Shown one piece after another: positions 17,050 to 58,366 of a DNA stretch of 64,000 bases. The DNA is from an uncultured Halobacteriovorax sp. (GTDB taxonomy: Bacteria; Bdellovibrionota; Bacteriovoracia; Bacteriovoracales; Bacteriovoracaceae). The position numbers and the translations under genes are program-made. The stretch is from the NCBI GenBank assembly GCA_963972815.1, contig CAXAXS010000007.1, positions 11,675 through 75,674 on the forward strand. Reading direction: 5' to 3'. Position 1 is the stretch's first letter. The number at the start of each line of letters is the position of its first letter. The notes beneath the pieces are model-generated. The model worked only from the letters and a program-made list of their open reading frames with translations. It had not been told where the DNA came from and made no database searches.

Positions 17050-17058
17050 ACTAGTTTC

Positions 17059-19974: not shown

Positions 19975-20005
19975 TAAGAATAACTCCCGAAGTGAAGATC
20001 AAATG

Positions 20006-43347: not shown

Positions 43348-43474
43348 GTTAAATTGGCGTTTAATTGGTGTCTGCCTGACCCCATCCTGACAAAATTTAC
43401 CCTCAGATAATGTGAGAAAAAACCGTATAGATAGTAATCCAAATAAGCGGTAAACTATCTATAAGGAGGCGACC

Positions 43475-43633: not shown

Positions 43634-43773
43634 GATTAACCTAGGGGCCCGTTGCCTAACTTAAATGTAAGATTGAGCTTAATAATTATTAAATTTTAAT
43701 TAAGACGAGACTTGACCTTCTCAATGAAGATCGTAGGTGGTATTTCTGCCTCGAACTTTCAGGGAGAAATACT

Positions 43774-44901
43774 GTGTCAAAAATCGTCTTAATTGCGCTC
43801 TGCATTCTCGCCCCAATTTCAAATACTTTTGCTTTTGATGCCACGGTTAAGGGTTTTATTGCTCTTGATATGCTCGTGCTCAAAAAAGAAACTGGCAGAA
43901 AACAGGAAGCAGAAACTGGGATCGGCACACTCGATCTTAAAGTCTACGCTACTCATGACGACTTCAGCATGAAGATCAAACTCGATCTCGATGATGGCAG
44001 TATTGGCGATGCCTACAATATATTCGAAGAGGCCACTGTAAGTTACCGTGTTCTTCCCGATCACCAAATTATTATGGGTAAAGGCAAAGTCGCTTTTCAC
44101 CAAATGCATTGGGGTGTGATCAGTCCATCATTCGTTGATGGCGGGGCTGAGCTCTCACCAGATCACAGTCTCTACGACCTGGATAATAGACTGCTACTTT
44201 CTTGGCGCTGGGGTGGATTCTCTCGCGGCTTTTTTAACTACCTAACATATTTTGGCGAAGCCAAATCAATTTCAACAAACAGTGACGGCACTCCTCGCGT
44301 TTCAACTTCAGGCACAGCTCCTAATCAAAGATATTCTTTAAGCTACAGAAATGAGAAAACTTTCTCTTCAAAAGAGCAGGCCGGTATCGCCAATAAATTT
44401 GAATGGTTTTTCAATCGTCAGCTTTCAGCTTCTGCTGGTGGTATGTATTATTATAACGAAATCAATCCAAAAAATAATTGGGCACTTGACCTGGCCGGTA
44501 AATACTCTGATCGCCAGCTCGAAGTTTGGGCCGAGTACGTTCACGCCTTCACTTCAACTCACTACGCCGCCCGCTACGCAACACTTAGAAAGCACGAAAA
44601 TCTTTTTCAAATCGGCGCTGAATACTACATGACTGACTTCTACAACGTTCTCACCAATGTTGAAGCGGCGGTAGTGAATAATCAACACCACGGTGATCCG
44701 ATTGGTGAGTTTAACGATGGTAAGAAAGTTAAGACAAAGACGTATAAAGCAGAAGCTGGTGTAAAGCTTAAGCTGCATAAGTCAGCTTTCATTACTCTTG
44801 GTGCACAGGTCGAAAAGCAAAACGTAGTGATTGCCGCTGATAATAGCGATCAAGATAATTATGCTTATATTCTTGCTTCTAAGTTTTCTTTTTTCTTCTA
44901 A
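43774..44901 (+). CDS. hypothetical outer-membrane porin-like protein
   Basis: 375 aa, GTG start after GGGAGA. Signal peptide SKIVLIALCILAPISNTFA, alternating beta-strand pattern, and an aromatic terminus SKFSFFF typical of OM barrels. Confidence 0.55.
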   Translation: MSKIVLIALCILAPISNTFAFDATVKGFIALDMLVLKKETGRKQEAETGIGTLDLKVYATHDDFSMKIKLDLDDGSIGDAYNIFEEATVSYRVLPDHQIIMGKGKVAFHQMHWGVISPSFVDGGAELSPDHSLYDLDNRLLLSWRWGGFSRGFFNYLTYFGEAKSISTNSDGTPRVSTSGTAPNQRYSLSYRNEKTFSSKEQAGIANKFEWFFNRQLSASAGGMYYYNEINPKNNWALDLAGKYSDRQLEVWAEYVHAFTSTHYAARYATLRKHENLFQIGAEYYMTDFYNVLTNVEAAVVNNQHHGDPIGEFNDGKKVKTKTYKAEAGVKLKLHKSAFITLGAQVEKQNVVIAADNSDQDNYAYILASKFSFFF

Positions 44902-46031
44902 CGAGTCAGCGGGGAGAGCTTAAGAATTTTCCCCGTATCTGTTCCGACTAAGATATGACCGCGTTGATCAACCAAGACTGATCTGATTCTCTCTTCAAGG
45001 GCGCTCAAGTAGCGCTCTTCTTTTATCGAAATATTGCCAACCATCACGACGCGATTGAGATGCTCAAGCGCTAATGCGCCAGAGAAAAAGCTCCCCTTCC
45101 AGCTTGGAAAAGCCGCGCCTTGATAGCGAGTTAAATCACTAGGCGCAATAGATGGTAGCCATACATGTCTTGGATTTTCAACGCCGGGAAGTTTTACGTG
45201 CTCAGTAATCTTAGGACCATAGTATTCGCGCCCGTAAGTGGCTTTAGGCCAACCGTAATTTGCGGCCTTGACCACTAGGTTGATCTCATCCCCGCCGCGC
45301 GGGCCGTGCTCATTAACCCATAACTCTTTTGACTCTTGATCATAATAGAGGCCTTGGGGATTTCTATGACCGTAGCTCCAAATCTCAGCAAGTGCATTCT
45401 TTGTGTTTAAGAATGGGTTATCTTTCGGAATCGAGCCATCTAAGTTTAAACGTACTATTTTGCCCATATGCTTTGATAGGTCCTGCGAGAGTTCGCGCTC
45501 CGTTCGCTCACCAAGAGAGACAAAGATATGCCCTTGGTGATCAAAAGCGATACGTGAGCCATAGTGAGCAGCTGTACTTTGCGGCGGCCTTGCTTCAAAG
45601 AGTGATTTACTTTCAACTAACTTATTCCCCACAAGTTTAGCTCGCTCGAGTCGCGTGGCCGAGAGCTCACCCAGCGGCGCCGAGTAAGTATAATAAATAT
45701 ATTGATTGCTTTTAAAGTCTGGATCAACCGCAATATCGAGAAGGCCACCTTGGCCCTCACTTAAAACTTTTTGAACACCTGAGATGACTTCTAAATTTTT
45801 TGTCTTCAGATCAAAAGTTTTAATTTGTCCGTCACGTAAAGTTAAAATGAGTTTATCACTCTCAACAAAGTCCATGGCCCAGATGACTCCACCAATTTTG
45901 TCAGACAGCGTCTCGACAAGCATTGGTACTTCTTTGTCTTTGAGATCAGAGATAGGGACTTTAGGTGGCTCAGTTGAAGAGCAAGAGCTAAGGGTCAGAA
46001 GGAATAGTAGGACACATAAAAGATTTTTCAT
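44898..46031 (-). CDS. PQQ-dependent sugar dehydrogenase (soluble aldose/sorbosone dehydrogenase, YliI-like)
   Basis: 377 aa. Lipobox LTLSSC. Beta-propeller motifs GGLLDIAVDPDF, HYGSRIAFD, GHRNPQGL, EHGPRGGDEIN. Confidence 0.75.
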   Translation of the reverse strand: MKNLLCVLLFLLTLSSCSSTEPPKVPISDLKDKEVPMLVETLSDKIGGVIWAMDFVESDKLILTLRDGQIKTFDLKTKNLEVISGVQKVLSEGQGGLLDIAVDPDFKSNQYIYYTYSAPLGELSATRLERAKLVGNKLVESKSLFEARPPQSTAAHYGSRIAFDHQGHIFVSLGERTERELSQDLSKHMGKIVRLNLDGSIPKDNPFLNTKNALAEIWSYGHRNPQGLYYDQESKELWVNEHGPRGGDEINLVVKAANYGWPKATYGREYYGPKITEHVKLPGVENPRHVWLPSIAPSDLTRYQGAAFPSWKGSFFSGALALEHLNRVVMVGNISIKEERYLSALEERIRSVLVDQRGHILVGTDTGKILKLSPLTR

Positions 46032-46049
46032 GTGTCCTAGTCTAACAAA

Positions 46050-47636
46050 CTAGGCTGGAACCACCACCGTTTTCGTGTGAAGTTTATTTGCTCGACCAGA
46101 AGGGTCGGCATTATAATCCTGCCATTTTGGAATCCAGCGACTTACATTTTTAACCATGCCAGCGTGTCCAAAGAGGTCTTGAAATATTCCACGAAACAGA
46201 AAGGCTTCCTTTGTCATAGGCGTATTGTGAGGATAGAGCTCGCTTGCCTTGGCAAAGCTAATGTCATCAACGGTGCGTTCTCCCAGATCCTTGAGCATAT
46301 CAATCCACGAATAACCCACTCCGTCAGAAAATTGCTCTTTTTGACGCCAAAGAACTGAATCCGGAAGCCACTCTCCTTTTACAAAAGCGCTTCTGAGCAC
46401 GTCTTTTTCCATACGCACACCTGGTTTAATTTCTTTCAGCTTAGGGTCCACGTCCATGGCAACTTTTAAAAACTCTGGATCGAGAAAAGGAACTCGTGCT
46501 TCAACCGCCGCTCCCATAGTCGAGCGATCAGCACGAAGAACATCAGAAGTGTGAAGGCGCTTTACGCGTGAAACACATTCCTTATGGAACTCAACCGAAT
46601 CCGGTGCATGGGCAAAGTAGAGATATCCGCCAAAAATTTCGTCAGCTCCTTCGCCAGAAAGAACAACTTTGACGCCTTGGCGAGAGATTTCCTTACTCAT
46701 GAGATACATGGGAGTCGAGGCCCTAATCGTTGTTATATCGTAGGTCTCAGTTAACCAAATCAAATGTTCGATCGCCTTCATGCCTTCTTCGATGGTGGCC
46801 ACAACTTCCGTATGATCACTATCAATAAATGCTGCCACTTCACGGGCGCGAATAAGATCGGGTGAGTCGATATCAAAGCCCACACTAAAAGTTTTAAGGC
46901 GACGCCCTTTGGCCTTTAAAAGTCTCGCAGCAATGGCGCTAACCAGGGATGAGTCGAGTCCACCAGAGAGTAAGGCACCGACAGGCACATCACCCATTAA
47001 CCTTTTTTCTACCGAAGCAATTAGTGTATCTCTAAGTTTTGAGCCATCACTAGTTGGAATAATCGCATCATCAAACCATGTTGGTTTAAACCAGCGAACA
47101 AAACCTGTCTCTAGAGTAAACATATGTCCTGGTGGAAATTCTTCGATAGTTTCACAGTGCTCAAACAATGCTTTTTGTTCTGAACCAAACCATAGACCGC
47201 CTGTGGCATCGCGACCAACATACATTGGCTTAATACCAATCGCATCTCGAGCTGCGAAGATTTTTTTGCCATCGACAATGACAAAGGCAAAGTCACCGTC
47301 GATATGTTCTAAGACTTTCTCGCCGTAAGCTTCATAGCCGCGAAGAATGGCTTCGCTATCAGACTTAGTAGTAAAGACTGAGCCTAGTGTTGATCTTATA
47401 GATTCGTGATTCCAAATCTCTCCGTTATGGACTAGGGCAGCTCCTGAGCCGCTCACGATGGGCTGTTTGCCAGTGTGCAGATCGACGATGGCCAACCGCT
47501 GGTGAACAAGGACAGTGCCTTCAGAGGTGATGTGGTGAGCTTTCTCATCCGGACCTCGATGGGCCAAATGCTCAGCACTTTCAAGAATTTGTTCTAAACC
47601 AACTTTGCTACCTGTTACAACGACGAATCCGCACAT
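46050..47636 (-). CDS. asnB: asparagine synthase (glutamine-hydrolysing)
   Basis: The start is placed at the ATG at 47636 so that Cys2 (MCGF...) is the Ntn glutaminase nucleophile, with GGAGG 4-8 nt upstream. PP-loop LSGGLDSS. The ORF-track start at 47699 adds 21 unlikely residues. Confidence 0.9.
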   Translation of the reverse strand: MCGFVVVTGSKVGLEQILESAEHLAHRGPDEKAHHITSEGTVLVHQRLAIVDLHTGKQPIVSGSGAALVHNGEIWNHESIRSTLGSVFTTKSDSEAILRGYEAYGEKVLEHIDGDFAFVIVDGKKIFAARDAIGIKPMYVGRDATGGLWFGSEQKALFEHCETIEEFPPGHMFTLETGFVRWFKPTWFDDAIIPTSDGSKLRDTLIASVEKRLMGDVPVGALLSGGLDSSLVSAIAARLLKAKGRRLKTFSVGFDIDSPDLIRAREVAAFIDSDHTEVVATIEEGMKAIEHLIWLTETYDITTIRASTPMYLMSKEISRQGVKVVLSGEGADEIFGGYLYFAHAPDSVEFHKECVSRVKRLHTSDVLRADRSTMGAAVEARVPFLDPEFLKVAMDVDPKLKEIKPGVRMEKDVLRSAFVKGEWLPDSVLWRQKEQFSDGVGYSWIDMLKDLGERTVDDISFAKASELYPHNTPMTKEAFLFRGIFQDLFGHAGMVKNVSRWIPKWQDYNADPSGRANKLHTKTVVVPA

Positions 47637-47829
47637 AAGACCTCCATCTCTTGCCCTATCATTCAACATTTTCGTCTTTTTTTGAACAAAAAATAACAAC
47701 TAATGAGCAAGTTTTAAATATGTTCAATAAATATGAGTAAAAATAGAGTTACCTCAATCCAAGGGTCCTGAATCGAGACTGAGCTGAAAAATTTTTAGTT
47801 GGCCTAGGCAAAGACTGCGCTCAAACTGC

Positions 47830-48723
47830 CTAGTTCAAGAGCCGACTCGTTTCACTGGCGACGAATTTAATCTCTTCACGATCACAATTATTTTGTCCCA
47901 CGACGACGAGTCGATGAAGGCCTAGGTCCTTAACTGCCCTCTTCGATGACTTGAGTGACGTCACTTCAACCAGGTCTTCATTTCTTGAAGCTACCCTTTG
48001 GGGCAAAACAGAGGCGATCGAACCACTTGCTGTAGCTGCTCTTAAGGTCTCAAAACTGTCACTCAAGATAGTTGGCTTATCAAGTTTTAAGTTTTTGAGA
48101 AACTTTGAAAAATATCGAGGCAACCCATCACGGCCGGGCTCTAACGTTCCAAAGCCTAGCCTCTCTATCGTTGTCAAAGTAGCTGGAAGTGACCTCGAAA
48201 TATAGAGTCCAAGTCGGTCCTCGGCCACATCAATCGAATAAAAACGGTCTAGATTATCATTTTCGGTAATAAGCGCCGAACATAACTCCCCCTTTCTAAG
48301 CATCGTCAAAAGGTTTGAAGTTCGACTAATTTTTAGTCCAAGTCTCAAGTTAGGAAGCTTTAGCTTAAACGAGCTGATTAGTCCCGGCAGAATATTGATA
48401 GCAATGCTTTCATAGGTACCAAAGTTTATCCAACTCAACTCCGGTACAGGTTCACCATTAATATCTTTAAGTTTATCAAACGCTTCGAATGCAGGCTTTA
48501 CAATTTTCAAAATCGCTATGGCGTCTGGAGTGGGACGAACACTCCCCTTATCTCGTATCAAAAGTGGTCTACCAAATGATTGCTCCAAAGAAGTTATTGT
48601 TTGAGAAATAGCAGATGGCGTCACCTTGGCCTTTAGAGCTGCATGCTTTAGACTTCCGTGGCTAAGAACTAAGTCTAAAGTCCATAATTTCTTAATTTGG
48701 TCGACATTAAAATCTCTAGACAT
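47830..48723 (-). CDS. LysR family transcriptional regulator
   Basis: The ATG at 48723 follows GAGAGGG (the ORF track starts at a TTG at 48735). N-terminal wHTH (LVLSHGSLKHAALKAKVTPSAISQTITSLEQSFGRPLLIR) and a C-terminal substrate-binding fold. Divergent from the 48830 cluster. Confidence 0.8.
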   Translation of the reverse strand: MSRDFNVDQIKKLWTLDLVLSHGSLKHAALKAKVTPSAISQTITSLEQSFGRPLLIRDKGSVRPTPDAIAILKIVKPAFEAFDKLKDINGEPVPELSWINFGTYESIAINILPGLISSFKLKLPNLRLGLKISRTSNLLTMLRKGELCSALITENDNLDRFYSIDVAEDRLGLYISRSLPATLTTIERLGFGTLEPGRDGLPRYFSKFLKNLKLDKPTILSDSFETLRAATASGSIASVLPQRVASRNEDLVEVTSLKSSKRAVKDLGLHRLVVVGQNNCDREEIKFVASETSRLLN

Positions 48724-48737
48724 AAACCCTCTCAAGA

Positions 48738-48783
48738 TTAGCTGATCTAAACCTAGGATTAAGTAACACTAATCAATACTTAA
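48738..48783. promoter_or_regulatory. two inverted repeats in the LysR/YHS divergent intergenic region (candidate LysR operators)
   Basis: ttag-ctgat-ctaa (48738-48750, T-N11-A form) and the perfect 7-bp arms ttaagta-N11-tacttaa (48759-48783). The second is centred about 59 nt upstream of the ATG at 48830. Confidence 0.3.
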
Positions 48784-48829
48784 GGCAATTTTATCGTTAA
48801 AAATACTTATCACTAAAAAGGAGAAAGAG

Positions 48830-49321
48830 ATGAGTACGAAATGGAACAAAGCTTTAATATCAGGTTTTATAGCACTTACAATCTCATTGATGACATTTAC
48901 CACCAGCGCTGAAACATTTAGGAACACCGAGCGCTATAACCTAGAAAACGGTGTGTCTCTTAAGGGCTTCGACCCTGTCTCCTACTTCCCTGAAGGGGGA
49001 TCAAACCCACAAGAAGGGAGTGAGGAATTTGCGCTCGAGTATAAAGGAGTGGTCTACAATTTCGCTTCACAAAGTAATCAGGATCAATTCCTATCAAACC
49101 CGAGTAGATACGAACCGACTTATGGTGGCTGGTGCGCTTACGCTATGGCATCGGGCGCACAAGTTGATATTCGGCCACAGTTTTTCTCAATCAATGGCAA
49201 TCGACTACATTTCTTTGTTAGCTCAAGAGCGAAAAGGAATTTCGACAGAGAAGTTGAGGATCATGAAAATCGTGCAGATCAGTTTTGGAAACAAATTTCT
49301 GGCGAAGAACCAAGAAACTAA
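48830..49321 (+). CDS. YHS-domain-containing periplasmic protein
   Basis: 163 aa. Signal/TM segment LISGFIALTISLMTFTTSA. GFDPVSYF ... YNFASQSNQDQFLSNPSRYEPTYGGWCAYAMA matches the YHS family as I recall it. Confidence 0.7.
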   Translation: MSTKWNKALISGFIALTISLMTFTTSAETFRNTERYNLENGVSLKGFDPVSYFPEGGSNPQEGSEEFALEYKGVVYNFASQSNQDQFLSNPSRYEPTYGGWCAYAMASGAQVDIRPQFFSINGNRLHFFVSSRAKRNFDREVEDHENRADQFWKQISGEEPRN

Positions 49322-49350
49322 TCTTGTAAAAAGTTCCGCAGGAGTTAGAA

Positions 49351-50007
49351 ATGTACATTGTTAATATTTTGATACTTTTAGCACTAGCTTCTTGCGGAAA
49401 CTATAGCGAAAGCTCAGGTTTCAACGAAGAAAATTTTAGTAGAGACCTTAGTGAAAGGGTAACTTTTGACATTATTAAAAAAAATATACTCACCCCACAT
49501 TGTATAAGTTGTCACCAACAGTACGCAAACTACGAAAGCGTAGCTTCAGGAATTTCATCAATTTCTAATGCTGTGATTTCAAATCGGATGCCCAAGAACG
49601 CGCCTGTTTTAAGCAATGGGAAAAAGAGTCTGCTTGAGGCTTGGATTATTGCTGGATTGCCACGGGAAATAGGTCAGCCTCCCTCCCCGCCAGTCGATCC
49701 TAAGCTTGAGGCTACATGGGTTTCACTCTCTACAAAGGTTTTTTATCCAAAATGTCTCGCCTGTCACAACCCACAAGGTCAGGCAAAGTTTTTAGACCTA
49801 TCTACGAGACAAGCTTTTTTTTCGCAGAGAAACCGAGACTTTGGCGGGGAGACGCTAATTAACTTTGAACAACCTGAACAAAGTTATTTGATCAGCGTTA
49901 TCACGGACCCACAAGAGCCAATGCCACCGACGTGGTCAAATATCGAGCTCTTAAGCGAAGATGAAATTAACACCATAACGGAGTGGATCACACAGGGTCT
50001 ACCATAG
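49351..50007 (+). CDS. di-haem c-type cytochrome lipoprotein (two PSCyt1-like modules)
   Basis: 218 aa. Lipobox LALASC. Two CxxCH motifs, CISCH (49501-49515) and CLACH (49753-49767). Each is followed by ...MP... and ends in W-I-x-x-G-L-P (EAWIIAGLP, TEWITQGLP). Confidence 0.7.
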   Translation: MYIVNILILLALASCGNYSESSGFNEENFSRDLSERVTFDIIKKNILTPHCISCHQQYANYESVASGISSISNAVISNRMPKNAPVLSNGKKSLLEAWIIAGLPREIGQPPSPPVDPKLEATWVSLSTKVFYPKCLACHNPQGQAKFLDLSTRQAFFSQRNRDFGGETLINFEQPEQSYLISVITDPQEPMPPTWSNIELLSEDEINTITEWITQGLP

Positions 50008-50015
50008 GAACAAAA

Positions 50016-50543
50016 ATGAAAAAACTTATATCCATAATTCTATTCTATTCGCTTACCTCAAATGCAAACGTCTTTGTAGTAGATCAGGGAGATATTGAAT
50101 TTAAGGCAAAAGGTAAACCAGCACTTATAAGCATCAATGGTAAATCAGATCACTTAACAGGGAAACTTACAGAAACTGATAATGGCTTTAGTGGTGAATT
50201 TGACCTTGATCTAAATCACCTTTCAACAGGAATAGAGCTTAGAGATGAACATTTGAAAAAAACGTACCTTAAAGTAGATCAATACCCACAAGCAAAACTT
50301 CAGTTTTCAAACTTAAAGGTCTTAAAAAACCAAGAGATAGATTTTGTTGCAAGCCTAACGCTTCATGGGCAAACAAAAGAGATAAATGGAAATGCAATCG
50401 TCTCTGATAAAAATACGATCAACGCAGAATTTATAATCAACCTTGCTGATTTTAGTATTGATATTCCAAGTTTTAAAGGAATAACAGTTGCAAAGGATGT
50501 GAAAATTGAGGTCAACGCAAGCCTAAAAGAGATGATAAAATGA
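50016..50543 (+). CDS. YceI-like periplasmic protein
   Basis: The ATG at 50016 gives signal peptide MKKLISIILFYSLTSNA. FKAKGKPALISINGK ... LSTGIELRDEHLK..YL.VDQYPQAKL ... HGQTKEI is the YceI pattern. Confidence 0.7.
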   Translation: MKKLISIILFYSLTSNANVFVVDQGDIEFKAKGKPALISINGKSDHLTGKLTETDNGFSGEFDLDLNHLSTGIELRDEHLKKTYLKVDQYPQAKLQFSNLKVLKNQEIDFVASLTLHGQTKEINGNAIVSDKNTINAEFIINLADFSIDIPSFKGITVAKDVKIEVNASLKEMIK

Positions 50544-51631
50544 GATTTGTACTACTCGTTTTATTGCTGCCAAGCTTGGCTCAAGCTTATGTGGAGAATA
50601 TTACCCATGGCTATGTCAACTGCATGGCCTGCCACATTTCACAAAGTGGAGGCGGAGTTCTGACAGATTATGGCAGATCTTTGTCTAAGGAACTCATGAG
50701 CACCTGGCAAGGATGGAATGGGATTGAAAAGCCATTATTTGGAGCGATCGAAAATAGCGAAAAGATTAAAATTGGTGGCAATATTCGATCGATTCAAACA
50801 CATTTAAAAAATGATTCCTTTAAACAGGGTCAAGCATTTATCATGCAGCAGAATATAGAAGTGGCCGCTCAATATATGCAATTATGGGTTGTGGCAACAG
50901 TTGGTCTTCAGGGAGGACCGAGCAGCTCTGCGACAAAGAATGATATCATCTCTGAACGCCATTATATAAGTTACGACGTGAACGAAGAGTCACGACTCAG
51001 GGTTGGCAAGTTTAGAAGAAATTTCGGTCTAAACGACCCAGCTCATACTAGACTTACTAAATCTCCACTAGGCTTTGGATCAAACTCAGAAACATATCAA
51101 CTCGAGTTTTCAAAATTTAGTGAACAGGATGAAATTTTCATAGCAACTGATTTAGGTGATATCAATGATCCTAAGTCTAAAGAGAGTGAAAAATCATTTC
51201 TGATTAATTATGCTCGATATATTGGTTCTGATTCAAAAGTAGGGGTCAACTATCTATATGGTGAGACCGGAAATAATCGACGCAACCTCTTTGGACTCTA
51301 TAGTGTCTGGAAACTACCGTTTGAAATGTTTTTCAAGGGCGAAGCAGACTATCAACAACTACTAAGCGCTGACGAAACAATACATCTTATGGCCTCAACA
51401 TTAACTCTTGGCTACCAGGGTTTTAAGGGTTTCACTCCTTATCTCGTAAGCGATTTTGTACAAAGAGACTTAAGTAAGCACAATACGAGAACCAGTCTTT
51501 TAGGAATTGGGACTCAATGGCTACCTCTTGCACATATTGAGTTTCAAGTTGAAATTCAAAAACGTATCGACAGGACTCCGAGGCGAATTGCTAGCAATAT
51601 TGCTTGGATGATGTTTCATTTTTATTTGTGA
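50540..51631 (+). CDS. hypothetical secreted beta-barrel-like protein with N-terminal CxxCH haem-binding motif
   Basis: 363 aa, ATGA overlap with the yceI-like gene. Signal peptide MRFVLLVLLLPSLAQA, then CMACH at 50621-50635. The remaining ~320 aa show alternating amphipathic strands and an aromatic terminus MMFHFYL. Confidence 0.55.
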   Translation: MRFVLLVLLLPSLAQAYVENITHGYVNCMACHISQSGGGVLTDYGRSLSKELMSTWQGWNGIEKPLFGAIENSEKIKIGGNIRSIQTHLKNDSFKQGQAFIMQQNIEVAAQYMQLWVVATVGLQGGPSSSATKNDIISERHYISYDVNEESRLRVGKFRRNFGLNDPAHTRLTKSPLGFGSNSETYQLEFSKFSEQDEIFIATDLGDINDPKSKESEKSFLINYARYIGSDSKVGVNYLYGETGNNRRNLFGLYSVWKLPFEMFFKGEADYQQLLSADETIHLMASTLTLGYQGFKGFTPYLVSDFVQRDLSKHNTRTSLLGIGTQWLPLAHIEFQVEIQKRIDRTPRRIASNIAWMMFHFYL

Positions 51632-51637
51632 GGCTCT

Positions 51638-52231
51638 ATGAATGAACAACTTGAAGCTAGCACTAATTTTTATCAGTCGATGTCTATGCGCCGATCAATT
51701 AGAAATTTTAGTCGTAAGAAAGTTTCTAAGAAAATTCTAATCAATGCTATCAAAACGGCTGCCACCGCACCAAGTGGTGCTAATAAACAACCCTGGCATT
51801 TTGCCATTGTTAACAAACAAGAAATTAAGGATGAAATTAGAAGAGCTGCTGAGGAAGTTGAAAGAGACTTCTATCAACGAAGAGCATCGAATATTTGGCT
51901 GGAGGATTTAAAACCCTTTAAAACCGGACCGATAAAACCATATTTAAGTCAGGCAAGTTCTTTGATCGTCGTTTTTACGAGAACCGAACAAAGCTATTAC
52001 CCTATTGAATCAACAGGAATTGCAGTTGGATTTTTACTAGCTTCTCTGCATCAATCGGGGCTCGCAACTTTAACTCATACACCCAAGCCTATGACTTTTC
52101 TTAACAGCAAGCTTGGTCTAGACAAGACCTATAGACCTTATATGATTATTGTCGCAGGGTATGCGCAAAAAAGTATAGAACTACCCTTGATAACTAAAAA
52201 ACCACTCTGTGAGATCTTGAGTCTTCATTGA
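51638..52231 (+). CDS. iodotyrosine deiodinase (IYD)-type flavin nitroreductase-superfamily protein
   Basis: 197 aa. Collinear with my recollection of human IYD: RRSIRNFS / RRSVRFIS; TAATAPSGANKQPWHFAIV / TAGTAPSGAHTEPWTFVVV; E-x3-Y (EVERDFY / EEEINY); DLKPFK..IKPYL / DLKKLR..IKEYL; LITKKPL / DLKRKPL. Confidence 0.75.
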   Translation: MNEQLEASTNFYQSMSMRRSIRNFSRKKVSKKILINAIKTAATAPSGANKQPWHFAIVNKQEIKDEIRRAAEEVERDFYQRRASNIWLEDLKPFKTGPIKPYLSQASSLIVVFTRTEQSYYPIESTGIAVGFLLASLHQSGLATLTHTPKPMTFLNSKLGLDKTYRPYMIIVAGYAQKSIELPLITKKPLCEILSLH

Positions 52232-52250
52232 AGACTAGCTATTATCAGAT

Positions 52251-52868
52251 ATGCCACTAAGTGAAAATAAACAATTCTGGGAGCAAGCTTGGGCCGATGG
52301 CCGCACGCGCTTTCATCGTCCAGATCCAAACGCAGGCCTCATCAAATATGCGCAGACCATCTTTGATTCAGGAGATCGCGTTTTAGTCCCATTATGTGGC
52401 AAAAGCGTTGATATGCTATGGCTAAGTGAACGTGGCTTTGGGGTCAGTGGCGTTGAAGTTGCCAGGCTGCCAATTGATGAATTCATTAGTGAGAATAATC
52501 TAGATGGCACATGGAGTGATCACTCTTATCAAGTTAAAGGTCAGCGCATTAGTATCTTTCATCAGGATTTTTTTAATCACGATGGTCGCTACGAAGCCAT
52601 CTACGATCGCGCTTGTCTCGTTGCTCTCGCGGCCCCTTTAAGAGTAAGAATGGCCGAACGCTATAAAGCCTTACTCAAGCCAAACGGTCGAATTCTACTC
52701 ATTACGTTAAAGCATCCCACCGCTGATGGCCCGCCCTTTAGTATATCAGATGAAGAGATTAACAGACTGTTTGCTAAAGATTTTTCAATCGAACTACTCG
52801 AGATTGCAAGTGCTCCTGTTGACGAGAGAACGATTGAGATTAGAAAGCTGGAATTGCTATGTCCCTAG
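52251..52868 (+). CDS. tpm: thiopurine S-methyltransferase (TPMT) family SAM-dependent methyltransferase
   Basis: 205 aa. FWEQAWADGRTRFH ... RVLVPLCGKSVDMLWLSERGFGVSGVEV... is the TPMT family signature. Confidence 0.8.
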   Translation: MPLSENKQFWEQAWADGRTRFHRPDPNAGLIKYAQTIFDSGDRVLVPLCGKSVDMLWLSERGFGVSGVEVARLPIDEFISENNLDGTWSDHSYQVKGQRISIFHQDFFNHDGRYEAIYDRACLVALAAPLRVRMAERYKALLKPNGRILLITLKHPTADGPPFSISDEEINRLFAKDFSIELLEIASAPVDERTIEIRKLELLCP

Positions 52869-53479
52869 TCATTGGCCTGATCACTGGCTTTCTTATGTGT
52901 ATTCCCATTGGCCCTATCAATGTTTGGGTTATCAACACACGCATCAAAAAAAATGCCGCCACAGCATTAGCAATCGCTCTAGGTGGGTCACTTATGGATC
53001 TTGCCTATTTTTATACCATCCTTTCTGGTCTTTCCTTTTTTGAGTTCACCCAGACCTCAGGTTTCTACTTCAAACTCATTGGTATTCTTGTCATCCTTGT
53101 TATGGGAGTTAAAGAGCTCATGGCCAAAGGTGATATCGAAATTGCACAGGGAGAAAAGGTCACCAACAAGGGGCTCATGGCCGGTTTTATGACAGGAGTG
53201 TTGATCTATACTTCTAATCCAACGCTTATTCTTACCATGACCGGACTTGGTGCATTTATTAAGAGCCTGGAAATATTTGAGTTCAATCAACTTAATATTG
53301 TCCTTTGCGCTCTAGGACTTAGTATAGGCTCATTTTTGTGGTTTGTCCTTCTAGTCAAAGTAGTCGATCGTTATCAAGAAAAAATCCGAGAAAAATACTT
53401 AGAACTATTTAGCCGCACCAGTGGAATCCTTATGGTCGCCCTAAGTATGTATATGGGTTACAAGTTAGCAACTCTATAG
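52859..53479 (+). CDS. LysE family translocator (amino-acid/metabolite exporter)
   Basis: 206 aa. Six hydrophobic helices and an N-terminal GPINVWVIN-type motif, as in LysE/RhtB proteins. 10-nt overlap with the TPMT gene. Confidence 0.65.
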   Translation: MSLVIGLITGFLMCIPIGPINVWVINTRIKKNAATALAIALGGSLMDLAYFYTILSGLSFFEFTQTSGFYFKLIGILVILVMGVKELMAKGDIEIAQGEKVTNKGLMAGFMTGVLIYTSNPTLILTMTGLGAFIKSLEIFEFNQLNIVLCALGLSIGSFLWFVLLVKVVDRYQEKIREKYLELFSRTSGILMVALSMYMGYKLATL

Positions 53480-53547
53480 CTGAACCTAGGTTAATTAGAA
53501 AAATCTAAATATGCCCTACTCTTTATGAAACTAACCAAAGGTGTTTC

Positions 53548-54210
53548 ATGAAGATTATCCTTATAAGCCTAGTTCTACTTTCCGGCATGGCTCATTCATT
53601 CGAGATAGACCCCACTCGCTTTGACACTCTCCCTGATAAAGCAAAAGAAGTCGTCCTAGACGCAATCGTTGATTTTCCTGATCGAAGACCAAGTGTTGGC
53701 GATCAAGTACCCGATGATTTCTCCATGATGATGACAATTGAAAGACTAAAGCAACCACTTGATCAAGTTTGGGCTGCCTACACAAGTGTGGCCCCTGCTA
53801 TTGTTTGGTCGGGACCTAGAGTTAATTACGCCATGGCGATTGATCGCGATACCCAACAAGTCTATTATCCCGATGAAACTTCACCCAGGTTTAAAGAACG
53901 ACTCATGTTTATGAATTATCTTAATTTCGTGGGCAAATACATGGTCATAGGTCTTGAAGTGACAAAGATCGATCATGTAAAAAAAGAAATTGAGATCGCT
54001 TACCTCGAAGGTAATGCTTCTAGAGGAAAACAGATTCTAAAATTCAAAGCTAGTAAAAATGGAACTCAAATTAATCATATCAGTCTGTACCAAAGTGATT
54101 CTTGGTTTAGAGATCTAGTGGTTTATCCGTTTTTTCACCGCTTAACCACGGGTGAGCATCATAAGCGTATGAAACGAATGATTTTAGAGAATAAAAAAAG
54201 CCCGCTATAA
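53548..54210 (+). CDS. hypothetical secreted protein
   Basis: 220 aa. Signal peptide MKIILISLVLLSGMAHS. No family recognised. Last gene before the terminator. Confidence 0.5.
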   Translation: MKIILISLVLLSGMAHSFEIDPTRFDTLPDKAKEVVLDAIVDFPDRRPSVGDQVPDDFSMMMTIERLKQPLDQVWAAYTSVAPAIVWSGPRVNYAMAIDRDTQQVYYPDETSPRFKERLMFMNYLNFVGKYMVIGLEVTKIDHVKKEIEIAYLEGNASRGKQILKFKASKNGTQINHISLYQSDSWFRDLVVYPFFHRLTTGEHHKRMKRMILENKKSPL

Positions 54211-54220
54211 AAGCGGGCTT
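54193..54220. terminator. terminator hairpin between convergent genes
   Basis: Stem aagcccgc / gcgggctt with a 7-nt loop. On the minus strand it is followed by an uninterrupted T run, making it a strong terminator for the S8 gene that ends at 54245. It overlaps the stop of the plus-strand gene, where only a weak T tract follows. Confidence 0.7.
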
Positions 54221-54244
54221 CATTTCAAAAACTTTTAAACTGAA

Positions 54245-55570
54245 TTAAAGCTTAAACATTGAAGGAAGTGGAAGCACGAAGCCTTCACTCTTAACGTTAG
54301 ACTTAGTGTCAGTTGAAGGTACATCTTGAACGTCAGTGATCGAGTGACGAATCGCCAGATCAACATTCATTGAACGTGAAAGCTCAGCAGCGCGAACAGC
54401 ACGAGCTGTGTTCACTGTACCAGAAGTCTTAACCTTACCTACAAGCCAGTCACGAATATCAACAGTACCAAGAATGATCTTCTTGATATCACGTGGTGAA
54501 AGTGAAGTGTTGGCATCTTTAACTTGGCCAGCAACATTCGCAACGTATGGAGCCGCTTGTGATGTACCACTTACTACCAAGTACTTATTACCTGGAACAG
54601 TTGAGTCAATACCAACACCAGGAGCAGCAACGTCTACCATTTTTGCGCCGTAGTTTGAAAAGCTAGCAAGCTTATTAAACTCTAGAGCAGCTGCAACAGA
54701 AATGACGTTATCAGCTTGGATATTTGTTGGTGAAGTTGGGAACTTGTCATTGTTAAGACCATCGTTACCAGCAGCGAAAACGAACAGAGTGTTCTCTGCA
54801 GCTTGAACCATATGGTCGCCCTCTTTAATAAGAGTGTTTAGGAACTCAACAGTCAGCTCATGAATTTGCTCTTCAGTAGGTGGCTCTTTTCTCATGATTG
54901 TTCCAGCAAGCATTTCAACAATCATCTTAGCTTGTGGGTAACCCGTACCGAATGAACCGTTTGCGATATCAACTTTATGTCCGTCAATATAACGAGCAAC
55001 ATTCGTAAGCATAACCATTTGCTGAGAAGCTAGAAGCTTAAGTCCTTGCTTGATTAAGAAAAGACCAGGTCCTGATTTGTCTGCTTTGAATGGCAGCTTA
55101 ACTTCAGTTGGAATAATCTTAACGGCCATAATTTTGGCAAGATCAGAATCTTTAGCAGTGATGCCGGCAACGTGAGTTCCGTGCATGAAGTTGCCATAGA
55201 CTTGAAGAGATTTGATAAACTCTTCATCTTGAACCTTCATCTTAACCCAATCTTTTTCTTCCTGAGTAGCCGTGCCATAGAAAGACTTGGTTTGGATTTC
55301 AAAGAAACGACGAACATCAAAAGTTAGAGTACCCATGTATGAGTAGTCGATGATTTGATTGTTCGACTCAGCGAAATTCCAACCATTGATATCGTCTTGA
55401 TAACCATTGTAGTCATCATCGCGATCGTTGGCTTCAACTTCACCTTCGTTAATCCAAGCTTTATCGTAAAGCTCTTTGTGTAATAGATCAGTACCGGAAT
55501 CGATAACTGCAATCGAAGCACCATGAGCAGTGAATGCACTCATAGCGAATATAGCTAGCAACTTTTTCAT
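54245..55570 (-). CDS. secreted subtilisin-like serine protease (S8)
   Basis: 441 aa. Signal peptide MKKLLAIFAMSAFTAHG. Catalytic triad motifs VIDSGTD (Asp), HGTHVAGI (His), SGTSQAAPY (Ser). Confidence 0.85.
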   Translation of the reverse strand: MKKLLAIFAMSAFTAHGASIAVIDSGTDLLHKELYDKAWINEGEVEANDRDDDYNGYQDDINGWNFAESNNQIIDYSYMGTLTFDVRRFFEIQTKSFYGTATQEEKDWVKMKVQDEEFIKSLQVYGNFMHGTHVAGITAKDSDLAKIMAVKIIPTEVKLPFKADKSGPGLFLIKQGLKLLASQQMVMLTNVARYIDGHKVDIANGSFGTGYPQAKMIVEMLAGTIMRKEPPTEEQIHELTVEFLNTLIKEGDHMVQAAENTLFVFAAGNDGLNNDKFPTSPTNIQADNVISVAAALEFNKLASFSNYGAKMVDVAAPGVGIDSTVPGNKYLVVSGTSQAAPYVANVAGQVKDANTSLSPRDIKKIILGTVDIRDWLVGKVKTSGTVNTARAVRAAELSRSMNVDLAIRHSITDVQDVPSTDTKSNVKSEGFVLPLPSMFKL

Positions 55571-55695
55571 TAAGAACCTCCGTGTCTAAGCCACGCTAAA
55601 TAACAGAATAAGATAAGCGTTAATTAAAACGCCCAGAAGTTGAACTGTCCCGTCCAACATTCTGTCTTTTACTGTCATTTTTGAGGTTTTAAATC

Positions 55696-57201
55696 TTAAG
55701 CTAACTTTCTAACTTTACCGACATTTCCGACCAAAAAGATCAACATTAATCCCACGATCATGCCGCCGCCAAAGTTACCAGGACCACCAGTCATATCAAC
55801 ACTGCCACAGGCGCCACCACCCTCTTCGTCAGAGCGTGTAATGATTGGTGTAGGGTTTGATGTATTAAGTGGGTCACTACCAGAGAGAATAGGATCTTCA
55901 GCTATTGTGCGGGCCGCTTCTGCGACTGCTGACACGGCGAAAACAAATCCGCCACCACAACGTCCTTGGACACTGCACATACCACTCATTTGCGAACCGC
56001 TGGCGCGCAAAATTCTCTCAACTTGGTGGGCCGCAATATCAGTATTCACACTTTTCATTAAAGAAACGATGCCAGCGATATGTGGCGCCGCCATAGAAGT
56101 ACCGCTCATCTCAGTCACTGTATCTGAGCCTGGAGATGTGCGACCTGTATTTCCAAGCGAGACAACACCATTTGGTGATTGTCCGCCGGGTGCCACGATA
56201 TCAACAGCGCTGCCATGATTTGAAAACCATGAGAGTGCACGTGACTTATTAGAAGCACCAACTGTTACAACATTATTACAAGTTGCTGGTGTCACTGGAT
56301 TTTGATCGATGTCTTGTGCACTATTACCGGCGGCCACTACAACAACGGCACCTTGAGTGACGGCGTAATCAATCGCCGCTTGCATGGTGAAGTCGCATCT
56401 GCCAGAACCACCAAGACTTAGGTTAATAACTTTTGCTGGATTAGGATTGGGACGAAGACCATTAACGATGCCTTGTGGTCCACCTGCGGCCCAACGAATG
56501 CCATCGGCGATATCAGAAGTGTAGCCACCACATTTACCAAGCACGCGAATTGGCAAAAGTTTGGCGCGAGGATTGATACCCGCAACATCTTTACCATTAT
56601 CTGTTTCGGCTAAAATTGTTCCGGCCACGTGAGTGCCGTGCCAAGAGGAATTACTTGATTGACCTTGGTAACAAGGATCACCCGGAGCAATCCAATCACC
56701 CGGATCGCTAGCATCGCGATCGCGCCCATCACCATCATTAGACATTGATGTATCGCTAATAAGGTCGGCCCCTTGAAGAATGCGGCCACCAAAGTCGCGA
56801 TGGTCACGAATACCTGTATCAACAACAGCGACGACGATGTCTTCGCCTTCGCTTTCTGTCCACACTGTATTGAGATCAATTCCAGAGAAGTTATCAAAGA
56901 AGTGCCATTGATCATCAGCGCGAGGATCATTGACGCTTGGATTAGTCATACCAAAATGCGAGAGAACTCTATCCTCTTCAACAATGGCCACGTCGGCCCA
57001 TTGCTTTTTGGCCTCTTCGACCGACTCACCTTCTTTTAGTTCGACAATCATGCGGCCGCTATCAGGGGCGCTTCGACCTGAACTTCTGCCTAAGAATTTA
57101 CCATCCTGGTCTTTCTTAAAATTGACGATCAAACGCTTGGGCATTTGCGCCGACAGAGTAAGGGGAAATAAAAGAATGAGTACTAATAAGCGTGTGACCA
57201 T
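55696..57201 (-). CDS. secreted subtilisin-like serine protease (S8) with C-terminal GlyGly-CTERM-like sorting tail
   Basis: The ATG at 57201 follows AAGGAAGGA (the ORF track starts at a TTG at 57243). Signal peptide MVTRLLVLILLFPLTLSA. VVDTGI, HGTHVAGT, SGTSMAAPH. The last 41 aa are GGGACGSVDMTGGPGNFGGG-MIVGLMLIFLVG-NVGKVRKLA. Confidence 0.85.
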   Translation of the reverse strand: MVTRLLVLILLFPLTLSAQMPKRLIVNFKKDQDGKFLGRSSGRSAPDSGRMIVELKEGESVEEAKKQWADVAIVEEDRVLSHFGMTNPSVNDPRADDQWHFFDNFSGIDLNTVWTESEGEDIVVAVVDTGIRDHRDFGGRILQGADLISDTSMSNDGDGRDRDASDPGDWIAPGDPCYQGQSSNSSWHGTHVAGTILAETDNGKDVAGINPRAKLLPIRVLGKCGGYTSDIADGIRWAAGGPQGIVNGLRPNPNPAKVINLSLGGSGRCDFTMQAAIDYAVTQGAVVVVAAGNSAQDIDQNPVTPATCNNVVTVGASNKSRALSWFSNHGSAVDIVAPGGQSPNGVVSLGNTGRTSPGSDTVTEMSGTSMAAPHIAGIVSLMKSVNTDIAAHQVERILRASGSQMSGMCSVQGRCGGGFVFAVSAVAEAARTIAEDPILSGSDPLNTSNPTPIITRSDEEGGGACGSVDMTGGPGNFGGGMIVGLMLIFLVGNVGKVRKLA

Positions 57202-57312
57202 TTTTCCTTCCTTGGAGAGGTCTATCGCTATTGTAACTTTCAAATCCCGGGCCAGCGTCCCAGCACATTATTCCGGTGTATTAGACGGTTATACTCGGGG
57301 GCAAATTGACCT

Positions 57313-57346
57313 TAAAAACGCAAAATGGCCCCTATATAGGGGCCAT
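57313..57346 (-). terminator. rho-independent terminator downstream of the S1 protease gene
   Basis: 9-bp stem atggcccct / aggggccat with loop atat. On the minus strand it is followed by ttttgcgttttt. Lies 38 nt past the stop at 57384. Confidence 0.7.
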
Positions 57347-57383
57347 CTTATTGAATCTTTGAATTTTATTTTGCAGCGTGTAA

Positions 57384-58289
57384 TTATTTAGTTTCTTCCG
57401 CTGGAACGTTACCACCAAGGATATCCATTAGGGCTTGGATATTAGTGATACGTGTGACGTCTTCGCCGCGACAACCTTCGTCAGTGCAATGATTAGAAAC
57501 ACGACAACCTTGACCATAGTCGTAGTTATAATCGTTCTCGCCGCGAACTAGGATCCCTTCAACCACACCAGTTTCTGCGTTAAATACTGCTGAACCAGAG
57601 TTACCACCGTAAGTATCTAGGTTAGCAATGAAGAAAACTGAGCTGTCGTTACTGCGAACGTTAGCGCCAGCAGCAACTTTAGTTGGAAGACCAGTTGGGT
57701 GACCAATCACAACGATTGGAGTCTTATCTTCGATTTTACCAGTTGTACGAACAGTAAGTGGCGTACGATCAGTCACCTTGCGATCAAGACGGATAAGAGC
57801 GAAGTCATCCTGGCTTGAGCGATCAAGTGATTGAGAGATAATTTTGCTACAGCCATAAACATTTGAAGCGTCAACAGTCATAGCTGCTTCAGTGTTGGCA
57901 TCATTATTAGCGTAACCGAATACCCATTTGTTTGAAGCACAGTCATCAGCTGAAGTCATACAGTGACCAGCCGTTACGAGAAGGTCTTCACCAACTAGAA
58001 AACCTGAACAGTTAGCAGCTGTCATTTGCTCAGAAAAACGCTCAGACTCACACATGCCGCGCTCTTTAAGAGATGGGCCTGTAATAGTAGCAAGATCGCC
58101 TTCGATAGTGATTTTTGAAGAATCGATCATACCAGCTGTTGATTTAGCAAGTTCAAGGTGAAGTGTATTTGTAACTTCATAAAGATCTAAACGGTCATCG
58201 GCACCGTAAATGACTTTATTATTTGTATCGCGAGCAAAGCTCAAAGTTGAAAGAGCTGCAAGTGCGATGATCATCCCTAATTTGTACAT
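57384..58289 (-). CDS. secreted trypsin-like serine protease (S1 family)
   Basis: The ATG at 58289 follows AGGA (the ORF track starts at a TTG at 58355 with no SD). Signal peptide MYKLGMIIALAALSTLSFA. His motif LVTAGHC, an Asp in DFALIRL, and Ser motif GGNSGSAVF. Confidence 0.8.
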   Translation of the reverse strand: MYKLGMIIALAALSTLSFARDTNNKVIYGADDRLDLYEVTNTLHLELAKSTAGMIDSSKITIEGDLATITGPSLKERGMCESERFSEQMTAANCSGFLVGEDLLVTAGHCMTSADDCASNKWVFGYANNDANTEAAMTVDASNVYGCSKIISQSLDRSSQDDFALIRLDRKVTDRTPLTVRTTGKIEDKTPIVVIGHPTGLPTKVAAGANVRSNDSSVFFIANLDTYGGNSGSAVFNAETGVVEGILVRGENDYNYDYGQGCRVSNHCTDEGCRGEDVTRITNIQALMDILGGNVPAEETK

Positions 58290-58366
58290 ACGTCGTTTTC
58301 CTAGAAATAGTTGACTCAAAGATGACATTAAAGAATGCCCGAGCTTGTTCTTCAACTAACAAGTTC

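Follow-up and report, generated by a model that had tools for sequence, protein, structure and literature searches.

Cyc2 is an outer-membrane Fe(II) oxidase found in Acidithiobacillus and in neutrophilic iron oxidisers (PMC8406198). It has been defined by a signal peptide, one CXXCH and a 16-strand OprO/P-like porin (Keffer et al., 2021, PMC8406198). Sequences are included or excluded by the motif AxPxFAR[QK][TY] upstream of CXXCH; the definition also asks for PXL, placed 4 residues after CXXCH, and for 365 aa or more (PMC8406198). In A. ferrooxidans, Cyc2 is part of a Cyc2-rusticyanin-Cyc1 chain (PMC10654088). In the iodotyrosine deiodinases (IYD), a Glu/Tyr/Lys lid triad (E1) binds the halotyrosine zwitterion and, with a Thr near N5 of flavin mononucleotide (FMN), defines the IYD subgroup (PMC8668982). 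Here we describe a locus from an uncultured Halobacteriovorax sp. (assembly GCA_963972815.1, contig CAXAXS010000007.1) that appears to encode relatives of both. It lies in a stretch of 64,000 nucleotides (positions 11,675 to 75,674 of the contig), called the window below, and consists of a LysR gene and a run of eight same-strand genes.

A first-pass annotation of this DNA, made by a model from the letters and their open reading frames (ORFs), took the run for a single LysR regulon that couples an envelope redox or ligand-handling unit to cytoplasmic dehalogenation and methylation, for example to handle and volatilise halides or chalcogens. The explanation favoured here, which we regard as probable when taken as a whole, is a chimera of two modules. 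Module A comprises the TPMT, LysE and START-fold genes; module B, comprising LysR and the first five genes, would be a metal-linked outer-membrane redox module.

The eight-gene run

The features of the locus are listed below, with the short names used in the text.

47830..48723, minus strand: LysR regulator of 297 aa when read from the conserved ATG (TTG 48735 in the ORF list)
48830..49321, plus strand: secreted YHS-domain protein (NF041384)
49351..50007, plus strand: dihaem c-type cytochrome lipoprotein (PSCyt1, lipobox LASC, two CxxCH)
50016..50543, plus strand: secreted YceI-family protein with a lipid/polyisoprenoid-binding fold (PF04264)
50540..51631, plus strand: gene 4, predicted fusion of a monohaem cytochrome and a 16-strand outer-membrane porin (CxxCH, AlphaFold2, Foldseek)
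51638..52231, plus strand: gene 5, cytoplasmic IYD-type flavoprotein of the nitroreductase superfamily (PDB matches)
52251..52868, plus strand: gene 6, TPMT-family S-adenosylmethionine methyltransferase, first gene of module A (PF05724)
52859..53479, plus strand: LysE-family exporter, with a 10-nt overlap with TPMT (PF01810)
53548..54210, plus strand: g8, secreted protein with a predicted START/Bet v 1 fold (AlphaFold2, Foldseek)
47699..52251, no strand: module B, LysR and a five-gene operon, 4553 bp (blastn against the relative L091)
48738..48773, no strand: candidate LysR operator with two dyads (sequence and alignment)
47751..47779, minus strand: terminator-like hairpin 3' of LysR, inside the inserted block, with a 13-pair stem
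54197..54221, no strand: terminator hairpin that also serves the convergent S8 protease gene and marks the fixed right edge of a variable slot

The ORF map agrees with the gene order and strands of the first-pass annotation, which placed eight plus-strand genes after a divergent minus-strand LysR gene. All seven of its spacings (29, 8, -4 (ATGA), 6, 19, -10 and 68 nt) were reproduced when recomputed from ORF coordinates, with the YceI start taken at ATG 50016. Profile-HMM searches upheld its assignments of the LysR, YHS, cytochrome c, YceI, TPMT and LysE proteins and placed the fifth product in the nitroreductase fold; PDB matches upheld its assignment to IYD. It had also reported a strong hairpin terminator only after the eighth gene, and the sole strong hairpin with a T-run was indeed found at 54197-54221. 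The strand on which this hairpin scores is the minus strand, where it terminates the convergent S8 protease gene; it overlaps or contains the stop codon of g8. An Rfam scan of the whole window gave no RNA family, so no riboswitch or leader explains the cluster.

Probable insertion of a module beside a resident operon

Comparison of the window with the syntenic locus of a relative, L091, using blastn gave two collinear blocks of about 85% nucleotide identity. Positions 1-8564 of L091 correspond to window 39135-47698, and positions 8705-20457 to window 52252-64000. Between the blocks, the 4,553 bp of window 47699-52251 stand in place of 140 bp of L091. The GC content of this block is 0.396, the lowest of any 4.5-kb segment in the 64 kb (mean 0.425, standard deviation 0.015).

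The syntenic Halobacteriovorax contigs with g8 homologues share an arrangement of GSDH and Asn synthase genes, then a variable slot and two S8 protease genes. In L091 and L092 the slot holds TPMT-LysE-g8 with the same -10 overlap and 68-nt gap and with a g8 that is 92% identical. L089 has the same three genes as L091, and L088 has TPMT-g8 only; none of these loci contains the LysR-to-IYD block. Ranked by Asn synthase identity, L091 (98%) is followed by L088 (94%), then by L089 (87%) and L001 (86%), then by L011 (84%) and L004 (81%). The three nearest relatives (L091, L088 and L089) are thus all without module B. The more distant L001, L004, L008 and L011 carry module B downstream of TPMT, with LysR tail-to-tail with TPMT in L001, L008 and L011 and an 821-aa gene between the two in L004. 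In L001 and L004 the IYD gene runs straight into the AAGCCCGC...GCGGGCTT hairpin, the one with which g8 overlaps in the window, and the hairpin overlaps the g8 stop in L088, L089 and L091.

The TPMT of the window is 89% identical to its L091 orthologue, which has its own 200-nt upstream region and a Shine-Dalgarno (SD) sequence. The palindrome TT[GA]AA[GA]AATCTTCAA, or a close variant, was found upstream of TPMT in L088, L089, L091 and L001. The window TPMT has neither the upstream palindrome nor the SD, both of which are carried by the 140 bp of L091; the TPMT promoter presumably also stood in this upstream region. When the regions between Asn synthase and TPMT in the relatives were compared with window 47600-54300 by short-word blastn, no convincing repeats of the kind left as mobile-element scars were seen. 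Parsimony favours an insertion into this lineage over repeated loss elsewhere. Since the upstream region of TPMT is lost and no terminator lies between IYD and TPMT, read-through is plausible, and with it co-transcription of both halves in this genome.

The end of the IYD gene has further features. A palindrome, AGTCTTC-ATT-GAAGACT (window 52220-52236), spans the IYD stop codon. Its half-site is the same as that in the different palindrome upstream of TPMT in the relatives; it may be a chance occurrence or a protein-binding site. A promoter-like TTGAGT-17-TATTAT (window 52217-52251) ends 5 nt before the TPMT ATG, and the TPMT start codon is ATG in the window and GTG in L091. Taken with the loss of the SD, these features could mean that a leaderless TPMT transcript arose after the insertion, which is speculation.

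The distribution of the genes was assessed by a scan of one genome per GTDB species, which gave 258 relatives of gene 4. Eighty loci were kept, with flanks of up to 10 kb, and were searched with nine window proteins; the denominators below are the loci that could be assessed. Among loci with sufficient flanks, TPMT occurred anywhere in the barrel locus in 1/45, and LysE and g8 in 0/45 each. The TPMT-LysE-g8 unit is kept only in a few Halobacteriovorax relatives. Because the second half does not co-occur with the barrel gene in other genomes, the run does not constitute one conserved system, and on comparative grounds it is best described as a recent join of two independently inherited modules. 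The gene-neighbourhood search was one of the checks that the first-pass annotation had proposed for its single regulon, and for the second half it gave the outcome that the annotation had named as counting against it. By this reading, the coupling of the redox and dehalogenation genes to methylation and export came about through the insertion and is no conserved design. The annotation's families, LysR link and linkage of envelope genes to IYD have stood.

The flanks of the slot were also re-examined. Two tandem S8 subtilisin-like protease genes (window 54245-57243, minus strand) are kept in all syntenic relatives and form the fixed right flank. On the left, the Asn synthase ORF (window 46050-47699, minus strand) has its true start at about 47636 (MCG..., Met) and not at TTG 47699. 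From there it encodes 528 aa, collinear with L091, and the intergenic region upstream is 193 nt instead of 130 nt. The corrected start gives an N-terminal Cys, as is typical of class II amidotransferases.

Conservation of module B in Bdellovibrionota

Nearly all of the 80 kept loci are labelled Bdellovibrionota or carry older equivalent names. A YceI gene lies directly upstream of the barrel gene in 69/77 loci, and an ORF for a CxxCH-bearing c-type cytochrome lies upstream of it in 53/61. The cytochrome c-YceI-cytochrome-porin core of module B is conserved across Bdellovibrionota. The remaining genes are more restricted. YHS was found in 18/61 barrel loci and IYD directly downstream of the barrel gene in 11/73, so that the linkage of envelope genes to IYD noted in the first-pass annotation is genuine. 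IYD was present in 9/18 YHS-positive loci versus 0/39 YHS-negative ones, and the IYD-bearing, YHS-positive loci are largely from marine Bacteriovoracia/Halobacteriovoraceae. The Pfam-annotated contexts of individual loci agree with these neighbour counts. In many Bacteriovoracia loci a LysR gene adjoins the module, on the upstream side in divergent or on the downstream side in convergent orientation.

Two individual loci were also recorded. L034 (CAXPDR010000015.1), labelled Flavobacteriaceae, holds LysR together with the whole module of YHS, cytochrome c, YceI, porin and IYD genes; such a module is typical of Halobacteriovoraceae and the contig is probably misbinned. In L063, from an Oligoflexia metagenome-assembled genome (MAG), a 560-aa protein with 21 CxxCH (11096-12778, minus strand) is encoded convergent to the cytochrome-porin gene, which suggests links to multihaem electron transfer in some lineages.

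In the literature searched, no paper joins cytochrome-porins to Bdellovibrionota or YceI to this context. The combination of YceI, copper and CsoR yielded papers on CsoR and copper without YceI, and that of YHS and YceI yielded nothing relevant.

A predicted cytochrome-porin family, probably related to Cyc2

The product of gene 4 has an identical counterpart (100%) in a Halobacteriovorax sp. MAG. Gene 4 has no Pfam or NCBIfam match even at permissive thresholds. Its N-terminus, MRFVLLVLLLPSLAQA/YVENITHGYVNCMACH, comprises a signal peptide (called by eye) followed by a single CXXCH, as in Cyc2. In an alignment of 28 homologues, C28, C31 and H32 are invariant and the conserved N-terminal block has the consensus AF-x-ENVTHGY-x-N-C-x-A-CHVSPSGGGVLTDYGRSLSKELMSTW. 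The C-terminus of the family is hydrophobic or aromatic, mostly Leu or Phe. The AlphaFold2 model (pLDDT 84.1, pTM 0.82) has 16 beta-strands after an N-terminal segment of about 70 residues. Foldseek matched it, with E down to about 1e-12, to general porins and to the phosphate porins OprP (2o4v, 1.4e-11) and OprO (4rjw), and the homologue P0006 carries a precomputed Porin_O_P match. The modelled barrel thus has the 16-strand OprO/OprP-like form of Cyc2. The "CxxCH beta-barrel-like protein" of the first-pass annotation is thereby sharpened to a 16-strand porin model with an invariant CxxCH.

A profile search showed that the family is large, with 1,969 representative clusters at E <= 1e-3 and 584 at E <= 1e-30, the representatives being 50%-identity clusters. 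The CxxCH is kept in 135/136 of the best full-length representatives. PxFAR (P.FA[RK]) occurs in 0/146 of the family representatives listed; in the motif region the window sequence is AYVENITHGY, against a family consensus of AFPE[NM]VRHGY. The PXL motif is also absent in its literal form, since the family has CH-[VI]-S-P-x-G-G-G-x-L, with a Pro at that place and three Gly before the Leu. Gene 4 encodes 363 aa, under the Cyc2 length threshold, and most family members have 360-380 aa.

For profile-profile comparison, 47 PxFAR-type cytochrome-porins were drawn from metagenomes with a degenerate DNA pattern. Using hhalign, the gene 4 family matched these proteins with a probability of 92.8% and an E of 4e-7 over 49 columns, which cover the signal peptide and haem domain. 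The two groups have a common haem-domain spacing, A-x-P-x3-R-x5-CxxCH ... L-[TN]-x-[FY]-G-R. The barrels alone gave 7.5%, which is not significant. Gene 4 thus belongs to a separate family that lacks annotation and most probably forms a remote branch of the Cyc2 superfamily.

Copper genes around the core in other clades

In Bdellovibrio, Pseudobdellovibrionaceae and Oligoflexia loci, the core lies inside copper-homeostasis operons. In L082, a tight same-strand run begins with csoR (PF02583) and goes on with genes for a secreted protein of 193 aa, a dihaem cytochrome c lipoprotein and an ankyrin-cupredoxin protein, followed by yceI, the cytochrome-porin gene and the gene of a Cu P-type ATPase that has YHS and HMBD domains. 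Upstream of this run lies the gene of a heavy-metal RND pump. The genes of a paralogous locus, L078, extend to those for a multicopper oxidase and a copper-binding DUF326 protein.

Ten context proteins, either copper-related or uncharacterised, were searched against 90 loci that included the 80 species loci. At least one of the ten was found in 21/90 loci, all 21 among the species loci. CsoR was found in 13 loci of the 90, the ankyrin-cupredoxin protein in 14, the RND pump in 9, the Cu-ATPase in 8 and the multicopper oxidase in 4. In other clades, the genes around the envelope module point to copper, and comparison offers no support for the volatilisation of halides or chalcogens put forward in the first-pass annotation.

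Further details of these islands were noted. L078 and L082 both belong to Bdellovibrio sp. 28-41-41, so that this organism has paralogous cytochrome-porin loci, both in copper-resistance islands, of which the first ends in the multicopper oxidase and the second in the Cu-ATPase. Two paralogous cytochrome-porin loci also occur in L024/L035 and L028/L084. The secreted protein of about 193 aa between csoR and cytochrome c (L082 6878-7459, plus strand) has no Pfam match, and homologues of it occur in 16 loci.

Regulator, envelope proteins and IYD

The LysR protein matches Pfam HTH_1 (49.5 bits) and LysR_substrate (49.7 bits); the NCBIfam equivalogs, the oxidant-sensing ones included, all stay under their cutoffs. 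Its start is better placed at ATG 48723 than at TTG 48735, as the start-codon column is conserved in relatives. The two inverted repeats that the first-pass annotation had seen between LysR and the first gene are real. Dyad 1 is TTAG-N5-CTAA (48738-48750), of the T-N11-A type, and dyad 2 is ATTA-N8-TAAT (48758-48773). When the regions between LysR and YHS in the window, L001, L004, L008 and L011 are aligned, the arms are conserved and the spacers variable. The locus therefore has the layout of a LysR-type divergent operon, with both LysR domains, divergent genes and a conserved T-N11-A-type box that would couple the regulator to the first gene. The two-dyad region is a candidate LysR operator.

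The YHS protein scores 113.3 bits against NF041384, "YHS domain-containing (seleno)protein", above the curated cutoff of 70. Cys102, Met106 and His127 are invariant in 120 homologues, and Cys102 is presumed to be the position that can be selenocysteine (Sec) in the family. The homologue search for this protein used a word index and returned only close Bdellovibrionota relatives, which makes it uninformative on other phyla. The cytochrome c matches PSCyt1 with 33.1 bits (cutoff 22) and has two CxxCH and an LASC lipobox, and the YceI protein matches PF04264 with 71.7 bits. PDB sequence searches with the YHS protein, cytochrome and YceI gave nothing beyond family membership.

The six best PDB matches of gene 5 are all iodotyrosine deiodinases, led by the Haliscomenobacter hydrossis enzyme (HhIYD, 5ko7, E 4.6e-48) and including the human one (4ttb, 2e-32); the best matches are enzymes whose IYD activity has been validated by experiment. 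Its residues E75, Y79, K100 and T148 align by phmmer with E91, Y95, K116 and T173 of HhIYD, so that the lid triad and the Thr that mark the subgroup are all in place. By these residues, gene 5 is predicted to encode a genuine IYD-type enzyme.

A selenium theme was also considered and rejected as weak. The LysR protein has a "selenium metabolism-associated" match of 52 bits against a cutoff of 250, the TPMT is under the selenium/tellurium cutoff, and Sec-containing relatives of the YHS protein do not imply selenium processing.

Proteins of module A

TPMT is a clear match to PF05724 (156 bits, cutoff 26). Its best NCBIfam match is TIGR03840, the selenium/tellurium equivalog, at 164.7 bits versus an equivalog cutoff of 223.2. 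Among PDB entries it is closer to the thiopurine-type enzyme (human TPMT, 2.6e-24) than to halide methyltransferases (1.3e-7). The LysE protein matches PF01810 with 61.7 bits.

The first-pass annotation had called g8 an orphan secreted protein. It has no Pfam or NCBIfam match even at permissive thresholds, and only 7 homologues were found among 5.8 billion proteins. Its fold places it more precisely. The AlphaFold2 model (pLDDT 84.6) shows a START/Bet v 1 helix-grip fold behind a signal peptide, and Foldseek matched it with probability 1.0 to Ara h 8, norcoclaurine synthase, PYR/PYL and bacterial START proteins (target-normalised TM 0.6-0.75). As in SRPBCC/START/Bet v 1 proteins, a long C-terminal helix packs in the model on an antiparallel sheet.

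The most distant g8 homologue (L090, 9001-11315) is not beside TPMT. It comes after the gene of a DUF819 membrane protein and faces, in convergent orientation, a gene for a RoxA-like dihaem cytochrome c.

Proposed explanation and its alternatives

In the chimera explanation, module A would be the resident operon of the slot in the Halobacteriovorax lineage, between the Asn synthase gene and the two S8 protease genes. Module B would have entered between Asn synthase and TPMT, replacing the 140 bp that held the TPMT upstream region and SD. Module A is now probably expressed by read-through from the LysR-controlled promoter, or alternatively from a promoter that happens to lie where the IYD gene ends. 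The core of module B may act as an electron conduit from the outer membrane to the periplasm for a small redox-active metal ion that enters via the porin. This is suggested because the cytochrome-porin, cupredoxin protein and dihaem cytochrome mirror the Cyc2 chain, and electrons would flow by analogy with Cyc2 to rusticyanin to Cyc1. The substrate would most likely be Cu(I), with Fe(II) possible. In the clade of the window, the YHS protein with its Cys, Met and His could serve as a periplasmic metal-binding partner. IYD would be a recurrent cytoplasmic add-on of the marine Bacteriovoracia branch that may dehalogenate halotyrosines, by-products of haem/metal peroxide chemistry in halide-rich water; such clearing of halotyrosines is weakly supported, and compatible with the restriction of IYD to the YHS-positive, largely marine branch.

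Several points weigh against this explanation. The putative homology to Cyc2 is carried by 49 columns, some of which belong to the signal peptide. Attachment of haem to the porin is a prediction, and any activity as a metal oxidase is conjectural. The direction of the event, insertion here or repeated loss elsewhere, rests on parsimony, and the co-transcription of the two halves is likewise predicted. The counts of promoter-like and terminator-like sites in the region do not exceed those of shuffled sequence, which leaves no ground for asserting internal promoters. In five genomes TPMT stays close to module B, within about 3 kb, although the arrangements differ; the shared variable slot explains this proximity, and some functional link is possible. 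The copper context comes from Bdellovibrio/Oligoflexia loci, whose proteins have 30-36% identity to the window protein, and not from the window's clade, which has LysR and in which no Cu-ATPase, CsoR or multicopper oxidase was detected within 10 kb. In one relative of that clade, siderophore genes adjoin the module.

A more far-reaching form of the chimera explanation is held only tentatively. It states that the core module is an unrecognised, Bdellovibrionota-wide branch of the Cyc2 superfamily that would work as a metal-responsive conduit, for example in Cu(I) oxidation, with the operonic IYD of the marine branch functionally tied to it.

An alternative that we consider unlikely is that module B serves iron, in Fe(II) oxidation or iron acquisition, and that the copper islands reflect copper-iron cross-talk. 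The haem domain is probably a remote homologue of that of Cyc2, a demonstrated Fe(II) oxidase, and the overall architecture is the same (PMC8406198). The siderophore genes mentioned above also point this way: in L003/L012 (9107-17110), from a Bacteriovoracaceae MAG, an aerobactin-type cluster with IucA/IucC, Lys/Orn oxygenase and acetyltransferase genes lies immediately downstream of the module, together with a TonB-dependent receptor. The family representatives, however, lack PxFAR, no terminal oxidase or other iron-oxidation genes are adjacent, and the hosts are predatory heterotrophs. About 21 loci instead carry copper-island genes (CsoR, Cu-ATPase, multicopper oxidase, cupredoxin or RND) or uncharacterised companions.

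It is improbable that module B is an envelope response to oxidative or halogen stress, in which LysR would sense the oxidant, the haem and YHS proteins would detoxify it and IYD would clear halotyrosines. The confinement of operonic IYD to YHS-positive, largely marine Bacteriovoracia/Halobacteriovoraceae loci fits such a role, as does the YHS family, whose selenoprotein members (by the name of NF041384) and invariant Cys suggest a redox-active Cys/Sec. LysR-type regulators also include oxidant sensors such as OxyR, to which the LysR protein has weak matches only, with no oxidant-sensing equivalog among its assignments. The module, however, contains no peroxidase, Msr or thioredoxin genes, its core is widespread without IYD or YHS, and the copper context elsewhere would be left unexplained.

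IYD releases halide, and TPMT-family enzymes include halide/thiol methyltransferases. The view that all eight genes form one LysR-controlled system, running from envelope redox chemistry through IYD and TPMT methylation of a halide or chalcogenide to export or volatilisation, is the least probable of all: all eight lie side by side on one strand and meet no terminator before 54197, TPMT is now physically dependent on upstream transcription and near module B in the five genomes above, and it has weak PDB matches to 8ajp and 3lcc, but the nearest relatives keep TPMT-LysE-g8 without module B, essentially all other loci keep module B without TPMT, LysE and g8, where both are present TPMT lies across LysR from the rest of module B and has a regulatory palindrome of its own, and the enzyme is nearer the thiopurine type and under the selenium/tellurium cutoff.

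Implications

The eight-gene "system" is an operon fusion by the chimera explanation, and therefore should not be catalogued as a halide/chalcogen volatilisation pathway. It offers a clean natural example of regulatory capture, in which an insertion removes the upstream regulatory region of a resident operon and places that operon behind a LysR-controlled unit. The analysis also exposes a large unannotated cytochrome-porin family that the published Cyc2 motif filter would exclude, and suggests a new job for cytochrome-porins outside iron lithotrophy. If true, this would be the first non-iron role for a fused cytochrome-porin. YceI gains a concrete partner, and bacterial IYD gains a genomic context that, if functionally tied to the module, would be the first physiological context for these enzymes. 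Apart from those of gene 4 and g8, all the families were already known.

Comparison with known systems

Module A is a small lineage-restricted operon. Compared with bacterial Tpm (TIGR03840, PF05724), gene 6 is a clear PF05724 member but falls under the equivalog cutoff. Unlike Tpm, it overlaps a LysE gene that is followed by the gene of a START-fold secreted protein.

Bacterial and animal IYDs (HhIYD 5ko7, TnIYD 6pz0) share with gene 5 the Glu/Tyr/Lys triad and the Thr near FMN N5. The E2 region of gene 5 is about 9 residues shorter than that of HhIYD. Gene 5 is also the last gene of an envelope redox operon, a context unreported for bacterial IYDs in the literature examined.

With the CsoR/CopA/CusA/multicopper oxidase operons, the module shares the position of its core in Bdellovibrio/Oligoflexia, between csoR and the Cu-ATPase with YHS and HMBD domains. 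In the window the likeness is limited to the first gene, a YHS-domain protein with conserved Cys, Met and His. Unlike copper operons, the window version has LysR, with no Cu-ATPase, CsoR or multicopper oxidase nearby. We know of no described copper system that has a cytochrome-porin or YceI.

Cyc2 is the closest relative in architecture. A. ferrooxidans Cyc2 and Mariprofundus Cyc2PV-1 combine, as gene 4 does, a signal peptide, an N-terminal CxxCH and a 16-strand porin in one polypeptide, and a dihaem c-type cytochrome is encoded nearby in both cases (Cyc1 for Cyc2). The Bdellovibrio gene 4 loci also adjoin a cupredoxin-domain protein, which mirrors the trio of Cyc2, rusticyanin and Cyc1. Unlike Cyc2, the gene 4 family is without AxPxFAR[QK][TY] and without a literal PXL, and its members are shorter (about 363-375 aa, where Cyc2 mostly has at least 400 aa). 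A YceI gene almost always precedes gene 4, also unlike Cyc2; a tblastn search for YceI and copper genes near 80 PxFAR-type loci gave essentially none, with sensitivity limited by divergence and short contigs. The hosts of gene 4 are predatory Bdellovibrionota, and it is found among copper-homeostasis genes or in a LysR operon rather than in a setting of respiratory iron oxidation. Compared with Cyc2, what is new in module B is therefore the different signature, the YceI partner, the host phylum and the copper or LysR context.

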